Source: an uncultured bacterium (GTDB taxonomy: Bacteria; Babelota; Babeliae; Babelales; RVW-14). From it: a DNA stretch of 64,000 nucleotides. Shown here piece by piece: positions 58,413-61,400 of the stretch; within the stretch, counting starts at the first letter, position 1, and each line of letters begins with the position of its first letter. The DNA is taken from assembly GCA_963759805.1 (NCBI GenBank), contig CAVXAT010000004.1, positions 59,483 to 123,482 of the forward strand, given 5' to 3'. The position numbers and the translations under genes are program-made. Below the pieces are notes generated by a model that saw nothing but the letters and a program-made list of their open reading frames with translations, searched no databases and was not told the origin of the DNA.

Positions 58413-61400
58413 ATGTCTCAATACGGAAGAGGTAAAGGCCTTTTACGAAAATCTTTTAGTAAAATTGAAGAGGTTGTTTCGTTACCAAACCTCATAGAGG
58501 TGCAATCAAAGTCGTTTAACGATTTTGTGCAGTTAGATTGCTTGCCTTCGGAGCGCAGAAATATCGGTTTAGAAAAGGTATTTAGAGATACTTTTCCAAT
58601 TGAGCATAATGAAAAAATTTCTTTGGAATTTATAAGTTATGAATTAGGGAATTGGGCGTGCATTTGTGGGCAAGTTACTGGTGTTGAGAATAGATATAAA
58701 TGGCAGTGTCGCTCGTGTAAAAAGGGTGGACATGGGTCATTAAAAGATTCTTGCATATGTCCAAGTTGCAAAAAGGATACAGCTTCCTACACTCGTTGCA
58801 AAAAATGTTTTTCACGTGTCACCATAAAAGTTGATTCCAATGTTGATGATTGCCGTTATAGTGGTAAAACCTACTCGATGCCACTTAAGGTCAAAATGCA
58901 GTTAATGACATGGGACAACGATCCAGAAACATCAAAACGGGTGGTCAGGGACATCAAAGAACAGGATATTTATTTTTGTGATCTTCCTGTGATGGTCGAT
59001 CTTTATGAAGACTATGACGGAAGGTACAAACTTGGAAGCCAGGGAACGTTTTTAATTAACGGTGTAGACCGCGTTGTTGTAAGTCAGATCCATCGTGCTC
59101 CGGGTGTAATTTTTACGATGAGTAAGAAAAATCGTGATTTTCGTGGTCAGCCCTATCAGGTTGCTCGAATAATTCCTAGCAGAGGATCGTGGATTGATTT
59201 TGAATTTGATCATAACGATATTGTTAACGTTAGAATTGATAAAAAGAAGAAAATTTTAGCAACAACGTTCTTACAAGCCTTGGGTATTGAAAGAAATTCA
59301 ATTTTATCTCAATTTTATGAGTTTGAGACAATTGAAGTAAAAGGCGATAAATTTTTCAAAAAAATTAACAATCAGCTGATTGGACAACGTCTTGAAGTTG
59401 ACTCAATTCCAAAAGAATTTGAAAAACAATTTTCTGTTGGGCAACGTCTTACCAAAGCATCCATAGAAAAATTACTTAAAGCTGGTATAAATTCGTTAAT
59501 TGTGCGAAAAAATGCTTTGATTAATAAAGTTGTAGCCAAAGATGTTGTTGATAAAGAGACCGGTGAGATATTGATTACTCAGGGAACTTTTATAACTGAG
59601 GAGTTGATTGATTCAACGCTGGGTCTTCTCAAATCATTCGAGATAATAAAATCCTCAGGATATGTTTTCCAACCAACAATGGCTTTGACGTTTGATCAAG
59701 ATAAAATAACAAACAGAGAAGATGCCCTTAAAGAAGTTTATGGAAAATTAAAGCCGGGTGATATTCCTACATTGAAAATAATGGAAGAGTATCTTCAGAA
59801 CTTGTTCTTTAACTCACGTTTTTATGATTTAACAATTGTTGGACGAGCTAGAATAAATAGAAAGCTTGGTTTGAATATTGACAAGGACAAAACACAGCTT
59901 ACTCAAGAAGATATGCTTTCTACATTGCGATATTTAATTGGCCTAAAAGAACGAGGAGAAGGCGAACTCGATGACATCGATCATCTTGGAAATCGCGCAA
60001 TTCGTCTTGTTGGGGAGCTTTTACAGTCCCAAATTTATGTTGGTTTTGCACGAATTGAACGAATTGTAAAAGAACGCTTTAGATTGCAGGAAAATTACGC
60101 GTCATTAATGCCATATGATTTCTTGAATGTTAAACCTCTTGCGGCGGTTCTACGTGAATTTTTTGGTACAGGACAGTTATCACAGTTCATGGACCAAACT
60201 AATCCTCTTGCAGAGATGGCACATAAAAGACGTCTGTCTGCTCTAGGTCCTGGTGGTATAACGCGAGAACGAGCAACATTTGAAGTTCGTGACGTTCACA
60301 CCTCTCACTATGGTAGGATTTGTCCGATTGAAACGCCGGAAGGTCAAAACATTGGTCTTATTTCATCCCTTTCAACTTATGCTCGTGTTAATGATTTGGG
60401 ATTTATTGAGACACCATATAGACCGGTTAAAGACGGTGTAGTTCAGGACAAAGTTTTCTATCTTGATGCTTTCCAGGAATTAGGGGAAACAATAGCTCAG
60501 GCATCAACTCTTTTGGATGAAAAAAATAAAATTACAGATACAAGAGTACTTGCTAGAAAAAATGGGAATATTATTTCAGTTAATGGAAAAGATGTTTCTT
60601 ACATTGATGCGTCACCAAGACAAATTTTCTCTGTTCCAACAGGGTTAATTCCATTTCTTGAACATGACGATGCAAACCGTGCCCTAATGGGTTCAAACAT
60701 GCAACGACAAGCAGTTCCTCTGGTTAGATGTCAGCCTCCTATGGTTGGGACAGGTATGGAAGTTGAAGTTGGAAGTTTGGAAGGCTCAATTGTAAAAGCT
60801 CGTACTGAGGGTATTGTTGAATATGTATCTGCAGACAAAATAATTATTCGAGTTGATTTCAACAAAGTTAGTGAAGCAGAATTAATTTCAAGACCTATTG
60901 AAGTATATAATCTTAAAAAATATGGGCGCTCAAGCCATAACACTTGGATCCATTATGTTCCAAATGTAAAGATTGGCGATAAAATTGCAAAAGGTGATGT
61001 AATCGCATCAGGTGCTGCAACTTGTAACTCAGAGCTTTCATTAGGCAATGATGTTTTGGTCGCATTTATGCCATGGCAGGGGTACAACTTTGAAGACGCA
61101 ATTGTTTTAAGTAAGCGTATGGTTGCAGACGATATGTTTACCTCCGTTCACGTCGAAGAGTTCATTGTTGAGGCTCGCGAGACTAAATTGGGAGCTGAAG
61201 AGATAACCAAAGATATTCCAAATCTTTCGGAAAAGGTATTGGAAGCTCTTGATGAGGATGGAATAGTAAAAATTGGTACACGTGTAAAGCCTGGCGATAT
61301 TCTGTGTGGTAAGGTCACATTAAAAGGCGACGTTCAGGTATCACCGGAAGAAAAATTATTGCGGGCAATATTTGGTGATAAATCAAGAGAAGTAAGGGAT

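Follow-up and report, generated by a model that had tools for sequence, protein, structure and literature searches.

The window analysed here is a stretch of 64,000 nucleotides from an uncultured Dependentiae bacterium (contig CAVXAT010000004.1 of assembly GCA_963759805.1, forward-strand positions 59,483 to 123,482). Its rpoB gene encodes an RNA polymerase beta subunit, RpoB, in which residues 80–142 (window positions 58650–58838, + strand) form a cysteine-rich in-frame insert, as read from the translation of 58413–61637. The insert occupies a loop at the surface of the protrusion domain (beta1), is conserved across the phylum, is strongly basic, and is homologous both to inserts in other RpoBs and to a module in a family of beta-beta' fusion proteins. 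The explanation that we find best overall, and to which we give a probability of roughly 0.55, is that it constitutes a two-zinc module on beta1 that gives the polymerase an additional contact at its upstream face.

The insert, its conservation and its predicted fold

Residue 80 begins at window position 58650 and residue 144, just past the insert, finishes at 58844. The insert opens with N-W-A-C-I-C-G, closes with S-R-V-T-I-K-V-D-S, and holds nine cysteines in 63 residues, at positions 83, 85, 99, 102, 114, 116, 119, 129 and 132 when counted from the ATG at 58413. A preliminary description of this DNA had claimed about 60 extra residues with nine cysteines at 58650–58844, at a site where E. 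coli has only a short linker, and all of this holds true, save that its residue numbers run one higher as they were counted from a TTG at 58410. In a phmmer search of the Protein Data Bank, which yielded 46 distinct solved beta sequences (from Proteobacteria, Thermus, mycobacteria, Streptomyces, Bacillus, Clostridioides and cyanobacteria), query residues 81–142 are left unaligned, and where both flanks align the solved chain moves on by only about 5 residues across the gap.

An artefact or a mobile insertion, be it a GC-rich repeat, an intein or an assembly error, has a close to negligible chance of explaining these residues. The assembly does contain frame errors in rpoB and rpoC (described below), but the insert itself is in frame and its GC content of 0.395 is close to that of the gene (0.377), which means that it is not a GC-rich mobile repeat, and no intein motifs were found in it. 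The insert is present, moreover, in hundreds of database RpoBs, and with this native base composition and its spread through the phylum we rejected the mobile repeat, the intein and the artefact alike.

The first 250 residues of RpoB, insert included, match 150 of the 151 phylum genomes, nearly all at full length, as well as 40 of 41 relatives; all matched Dependentiae genomes belong to one order, and the two genomes lacking a match to this N-terminal region are 58% and 92% complete. Database RpoBs with the same insert bear the source names Candidatus Dependentiae, Babeliaceae or TM6. We read the insert itself in the translations of approximately 60 loci, which give a consensus of G-x-W-x-C-x-C-G, N-R-Y-x-W-x-C-x-x-C, C-P-x-C and Y-x-x-C-x-x-C-x-S-R-V, so that the cysteines fall into four knuckles (Table 1). 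In an alignment of 45 Dependentiae sequences the cysteines of knuckles 1 and 4 are invariant, those of knuckles 2 and 3 are lost only in a set of four-cysteine variants, and the module residues G1, W3, G12, R16, W19, Y48 and R57 are invariant as well. Nine cysteines in 63 residues, eight of them conserved across a phylum, are not a product of chance. The cysteines, whose conservation among relatives had been made decisive beforehand in the preliminary description, are thus conserved in the Dependentiae alignments, and its nine-cysteine pattern stands for eight positions but not for C114. Eight conserved cysteines are still sufficient for the two zinc sites that it had proposed, each with four cysteine ligands (Cys4).

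The predicted structure is in keeping with this arrangement. AlphaFold2 run on the insert alignment alone gives a predicted local distance difference test score (pLDDT) of 84, and run on a 221-residue beta1 fragment (the context model, in which model residue plus 10 equals RpoB residue) it gives a pLDDT of 84–94 over the insert and a predicted template modelling score of 0.73. The models run from a short strand into knuckle 1, a helix turn, a hairpin tipped by knuckle 2, knuckle 3, and a second hairpin tipped by knuckle 4; in the secondary structure assigned with DSSP the knuckles, which hold the eight conserved cysteines, have strands on either side. As modelled, this order is typical of a two-zinc-ribbon pattern. 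The structural neighbours of the insert model are all Cys4 zinc ribbons, namely those of eL40, MCM, the adenylate kinase lid, Rpb12 and TFIIE-alpha, with Z scores of at most 3.6 and Foldseek E-values above 0.3. The ribbons of Rpb12/RpoP, TFIIE-alpha, MCM and eL40, nearest among these weak neighbours, have one zinc site each against the two predicted here and are not related to the insert in sequence.

On these grounds the module very probably binds zinc, and the number of ions is probably two, each held by a Cys4 site. The core enzyme of E. coli binds two zinc ions, both of them in beta-prime. As to how the knuckles pair, a tandem arrangement (1 with 2, and 3 with 4) appears somewhat the better choice, because homology to the zinc-binding domain (ZBD) of beta-prime, described below, pairs knuckles 1 and 2 and because the secondary-structure pattern fits it, while a nested arrangement (1 with 4, and 2 with 3) is a tentative second choice. 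The nested form draws its interest from the four-cysteine variants. Knuckles 2 and 3 have been lost jointly, with knuckles 1 and 4 intact, at nine loci (GTDB families f3, f5, f6, f12 and f18), and in a tree built from RpoB residues on either side of the insert, a short alignment presented without support values, these variants fall in at least three places beside eight-cysteine sisters. Families f3, f5 and f18 each hold both forms, in agreement with the tree. That the two middle knuckles disappeared together in three or more clades suggests that knuckles 1 and 4 can form a site together, either because the pairing is nested or because the knuckles re-paired after the loss. Re-pairing seems sterically plausible since the ends of the insert must lie together in a five-residue loop and knuckles 1 and 4 sit there.

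Table 1. Features of the insert, its surroundings in beta1 and its gene context (window positions).
Feature	Position	Strand	Basis or remark
Beta1 strand leading into the insert (RpoB 69–78)	58617..58646	+	DSSP of context model, strand 59–68
Knuckle 1, C83-x-C85 (W-x-C-x-C-G)	58659..58667	+	Invariant in 45 sequences; aligns with first beta-prime ZBD knuckle
Knuckle 2, C99-x-x-C102	58707..58718	+	Conserved save in four-cysteine variants
C114, ninth cysteine	58752..58754	+	Variable in alignments
Knuckle 3, C116-P-x-C119	58758..58769	+	Conserved save in four-cysteine variants, lost jointly with knuckle 2
Knuckle 4, C129-x-x-C132, then S-R-V	58797..58808	+	Invariant
Helix after the insert (RpoB 144–150, V-D-D-C-R-Y-S)	58842..58862	+	DSSP of context model, helix 134–140
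I-K-E motif (RpoB 181–183), beta1 edge strand	58953..58961	+	Context-model strand 166–183
rpoB (RNA polymerase beta)	58413..62727	+	Pfam Rpb2 domains and translations; two frames, 58413–61637 and 61591–62727
nusG, rplK, rplA, rplJ, rplL, upstream of rpoB	55393..58221	+	Pfam scan; canonical operon context

Relatives in other RpoBs, in beta-prime and in a family of fusion proteins

The preliminary description had taken the insert to be specific to its lineage, a view that we cannot maintain as homologous eight-cysteine and four-cysteine forms occur in other RpoBs and in a beta-beta' fusion family. To reach the former, metagenomes were scanned for GC-rich coding of Y-E-x-G-x-W-x-C-x-C-G, and the 51 contigs obtained were divided into four groups by translation. 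Type A consists of RpoBs on contigs of 57–68% GC with a 66-residue, eight-cysteine insert; by profile-profile comparison with hhalign the Dependentiae insert matches it at 98.2% probability (E-value 4 × 10−14) with all four knuckles in register. Type B consists of RpoBs with a four-cysteine insert of about 30 residues. A further RpoB, on contig SWBX01001902.1 (46% GC; hereafter L127), has an eight-cysteine insert with CxC for its second knuckle, a trait that it shares with the fusion family; this insert and the second small insert of L127 (described below) are similar to those of Dependentiae, and more so to those of the fusions. The fourth group adds two more members of the fusion family itself. 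In every insert type seen, knuckle 4 stands 14 residues ahead of a downstream [DE]-C. The type A RpoBs are probably acidobacterial; the RpoB fragments to which the ESM Atlas points, which serve as leads only, are mostly so. The link to type A comes from the pattern scan together with the profile-profile comparison, and a profile built from Dependentiae inserts only, searched against 1.84 billion representatives, found no type A RpoB at E-values up to 0.001. Word-based protein searches added little outside Dependentiae: they gave 30 Dependentiae-like candidates in one case, Dependentiae among the matches listed in another, and only the Streptomyces fusion family in a further one. An Omnitrophota locus (L070) was considered as a carrier and set aside, its RpoB being without the insert.

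These intermediate forms connect the module to the zinc-binding domain of beta-prime. The type B insert, aligned over 33 residues, matches the ZBD of Dependentiae RpoC at 97.8% probability (E-value 1 × 10−12) with 54% identity, so that the four-cysteine form is, as judged by sequence comparison, clearly a relative of that domain. Knuckles 1 and 2 of type A match both ZBD knuckles at 96.2%, and knuckle 2 of the Dependentiae insert is in register with type A knuckle 2, itself aligned with the second knuckle of the ZBD. It is through the type A and four-cysteine intermediates that the Dependentiae insert is linked with the ZBD, and by these alignments the module is probably related to the beta-prime domain. 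Both share a CxC-G knuckle, a spacer of 12–13 residues and a CxxC-G knuckle, and the upstream face of the polymerase is where each is located; the insert differs in belonging to the other subunit, in having beta1 as its domain in place of the clamp or the RNA exit region, and in having four cysteines more.

The remaining relatives emerged from an exhaustive hidden Markov model search of the same 1.84 billion representatives with the insert profile, which returned the Dependentiae RpoBs and a second family of GC-rich proteins of about 1212–1269 residues, with E-values from 6.5 × 10−8 to 3.5 × 10−4. Members occur in Streptomyces and Saccharothrix and are all annotated as hypothetical. (The records are L064–L069, on Streptomyces contigs, and P0039, P0043, P0044, P0046–P0052 and P0184–P0189.) The Dependentiae insert and that of this family align over 61 columns at 98.65% probability (E-value 4.6 × 10−16). 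Each protein starts with a helical N-terminus of unknown kind, followed by the beta N-terminal block with the insert; the middle is a beta segment that aligns with Dependentiae RpoB 875–1010 and bears L-L-R-x-I-F-G, which we take to be the flap-tip helix; and the end consists of a remnant of the beta C-terminus followed by beta-prime from its zinc ribbon to approximately E. coli residue 483, a part that includes the clamp helices. Sigma and NusA are bound in other bacteria by these clamp helices and by the flap tip.

In an alignment of the family consensus with E. coli beta-prime made by eye, the catalytic N-A-D-F-D-G-D motif is replaced by W-x-N-L-G-x-x, and on this alignment the fusion proteins apparently cannot polymerise. 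All eight insert cysteines are nevertheless invariant in the family, and the module is among its best conserved parts. The conservation of the module in an apparently dead fusion would mean that it is kept for something other than catalysis. At both of the loci scanned (L066 and L068, of six found) the gene directly upstream on the same strand encodes a fusion of an XRE-HTH domain with a STAND-type NTPase, and a PADLOC scan returned no match for the fusion family. The fusion may mimic the polymerase in order to act as a sensor or a decoy, and one possible role is to lure phage proteins directed against RNA polymerase. We also considered that the fusion was simply copied from Dependentiae, which is not supported by its beta-prime part, this being no closer to Dependentiae RpoC (172 bits) than to B. 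subtilis beta-prime (201 bits). In pairwise comparison to the fusion insert, the insert of L127 scores 130 and that of Dependentiae 107, which makes L127 the closer of the two.

Position on beta1, charge and possible role

Within beta1 the insert lies between strand 2 (RpoB 69–78) and the helix at 144–150 that precedes the next long strand (strand 3), and the strand after that bears D-I-K-E-Q, with I-K-E at 181–183. The context model matches RNA polymerase beta chains and the isolated beta1 domains 3mlq_C and 4xax_A with a Foldseek probability of 1.00. The beta1 sheet has four strands, and the RID of Mfd and CarD pairs with the one at its edge, which bears I-K-E (PMC3001067). This motif is conserved in the RpoB studied here. 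The insert shares its domain and sheet with the docking site seen in 3mlq and 4xax, with the difference that the RID of CarD or Mfd binds the edge strand, whereas the insert belongs to beta and leaves the sheet at a distance of two strands. A CarD of 185 residues with both Pfam domains (RID and CarD_C) is present in 30 of the 31 Dependentiae genomes searched (carD loci include G000:C1:271743-271910 and those of relatives, L105–L108). The Mfd-specific TRCF domain was found in 0 of 21 Dependentiae genomes, with 10 of 10 bacterial control genomes positive.

The insert of this RpoB has a net charge of +9, against a phylum mean of +7.4, and is the most basic 63-residue stretch of the protein, the remainder of which averages −0.4 per 63 residues. 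As the insert is basic and the rest of RpoB is not, the charge belongs to the module and is not the outcome of a lysine-rich proteome.

Few enzymes have been studied as well as bacterial RNA polymerase, and its lineage-specific inserts are often regulatory handles, such as SI1 for DksA/TraR and SI3 for pausing and open-complex stability. In the explanation that we prefer, beta1 would have acquired, in one of its surface loops, a small module that folds by itself and is kept rigid by zinc. The basic surface of this module would provide one more contact at the upstream face of the polymerase, next to where the transcription bubble has its upstream edge. The likeliest partner would be the backbone of upstream promoter DNA, followed by CarD or sigma, and contact with any of these would help to hold the open complex. 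We favor an upstream-face contact because the module is conserved, is basic, is situated on the domain that carries CarD, and is retained in the dead fusion. That it functions on the upstream face at all we would call an even chance, and DNA as its partner is a tentative assignment that falls short of even.

Several observations weigh against this explanation. Homologous inserts elsewhere are not basic, with a mean charge of +2.3 in type A, +0.3 in the four-cysteine form and +2.8 in the fusion family, which weakens the case for DNA binding as a general role; if real, DNA binding may not be the ancestral or general function. Compared directly, the Dependentiae insert and the ZBD reach only 74.5% probability over 15 columns, at the first knuckle. 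No Pfam zinc-ribbon family matches above its cut-off, the PF07191 Zn_ribbon_6 match having an E-value of 0.05 and 14 bits against a 25-bit cut-off, and the structural matches given above are likewise weak. Several Dependentiae lineages without knuckles 2 and 3 also apparently manage with four cysteines.

The same facts can be read in favor of a protein docking site, in which the module would bind CarD, sigma (region 3 or the non-conserved region) or a lineage-specific factor and zinc would only give it shape. The module is in the beta1 sheet that binds CarD, nearly all of the relatives searched have CarD, and the low charge of the homologous inserts outside Dependentiae is more natural for a protein partner; the fusions, too, retain the module together with L-L-R-x-I-F-G and beta-prime to about residue 483, suggesting that a protein-binding face has been preserved. 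The very high charge in Dependentiae suits nucleic acid better than protein, and we consider docking of this kind rather unlikely. Somewhat less probable still is that the module is a tolerated decoration, an old duplication of the beta-prime ribbon without a contact of its own, kept as its removal would destabilise beta1. The surface-loop site is what one would expect of such a decoration, as is the loss of half of the module in at least three Dependentiae clades and its absence from many phyla and from all solved enzymes. This is difficult to reconcile with surface residues other than cysteine (R16, W19, Y48 and R57) that are invariant across the phylum, with the extreme charge, and with eight invariant cysteines in a protein that has no catalysis to preserve. 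Zinc-thiolate switches are known in other proteins and the Dependentiae bacterium is presumably an intracellular symbiont, so a switch responding to redox state or zinc availability, which would alter polymerase activity in the host cell, might also be imagined for a module with eight to nine cysteines near the surface. Nothing specific speaks for it, however, and the module also occurs in Streptomyces proteins and on metagenomic contigs from sediment and other environments, which makes a switch very improbable.

A bolder version of the upstream-face contact can be formulated, which we think improbable as a whole. Here beta would have received an ancient duplicate of the zinc finger of beta-prime, and this, once grown to two zinc sites, would act as a second zinc jaw opposite upstream promoter DNA and next to CarD, and several phyla (Dependentiae, Acidobacteriota and others) would then hold promoters in a manner unlike that of any studied polymerase. 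The same face would later have been copied into the dead fusion, working with the STAND NTPase as a polymerase look-alike.

The position of the insert does not correspond to the sites described for beta-i4, i9, i11 and i12 and for the BEAN insertions, which are in the beta2 lobe, the flap base and the C-terminal regions. A 2024 survey lists five beta insertion sites, none of them N-terminal, leaves out inserts shorter than 50 residues, and contains none of the words zinc, cysteine and ribbon (PMC11515920); no match exists among its five sites, in line with the preliminary description, whose author was not aware of a zinc-binding insert described at this position. The beta-i4, i9, i11 and i12 sites are all elsewhere as well (PMC2939025). 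Like the module, the i4, i9, i11 and i12 insertions of Lane and Darst and the BEAN domains (PMC11515920) are extra domains in surface loops that are present in some phyla only, but the module is smaller, lies in a universal N-terminal domain, and has a predicted Cys4 ribbon fold as opposed to a BEAN, BBM2 or SBHM fold. Searches of the literature for a Dependentiae rpoB insert, a beta zinc ribbon or an acidobacterial cysteine-rich insertion found no description, with the tables of Lane and Darst (2010) outside their scope, and the RNA polymerase literature searched has no mention of beta-i1 to i3, the sites upstream of i4 in the Lane and Darst numbering. As far as the citation in PMC2939025 goes, the Lane and Darst set included Acidobacteria, and if acidobacterial RpoBs carry type A the position could be listed there as beta-i1 to i3 without a remark on zinc.

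A zinc module in beta would therefore be of interest in that neither its site nor its fold appears in the two surveys (PMC11515920; PMC2939025). Common to several poorly studied phyla and adjoining the CarD site, it would represent a new promoter-handling element, and the explanation is testable in culturable Acidobacteriota if the placement of type A is true. The insert is also a clean phylogenetic marker, and it exposes uncharacterised polymerase-derived pseudo-enzymes in actinomycetes that produce antibiotics.

Gene context and additional observations

The gene stands in the context nusG-rplKAJL-rpoB-rpoC, with the downstream rpoC identified by translation, and the Rpb2 domains 1, 2, 3, 45, 6 and 7 follow in order in RpoB, all above their curated Pfam cut-offs. 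As assembled, rpoB is not one uninterrupted frame but breaks near 61620–61637 (within window positions 61591–61637), with one extra base near 61628 relative to a genome of the same genus (G003) that has a single frame of 1447 residues. To judge from this comparison, an assembly error is most likely the cause. The downstream rpoC similarly goes out of frame at window positions 63000–63205 and regains it within about 200 nucleotides, and compared with G003 a base is gained near 63005 and another is lost near 63200.

Two Dependentiae genomes contain stretches (G162:C1:728459-729196 and G160:C2:281206-281799) that match the N-terminal part of rpoB at 48–57% identity but are interrupted by 3 to 8 stop codons, and these are either decayed copies or the result of poor assembly. 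RpoB of the window also has a second small insert of 13 residues (RpoB 196–208, window positions 58998–59036, + strand) between P-V-M-V-D and G-T-F-L-I-N-G, which is predicted to form a beta-hairpin (context-model strands 187–189 and 195–197). None of the solved beta chains has it, nor do the RpoBs of types A and B; the dead fusion family and contig L127 do.

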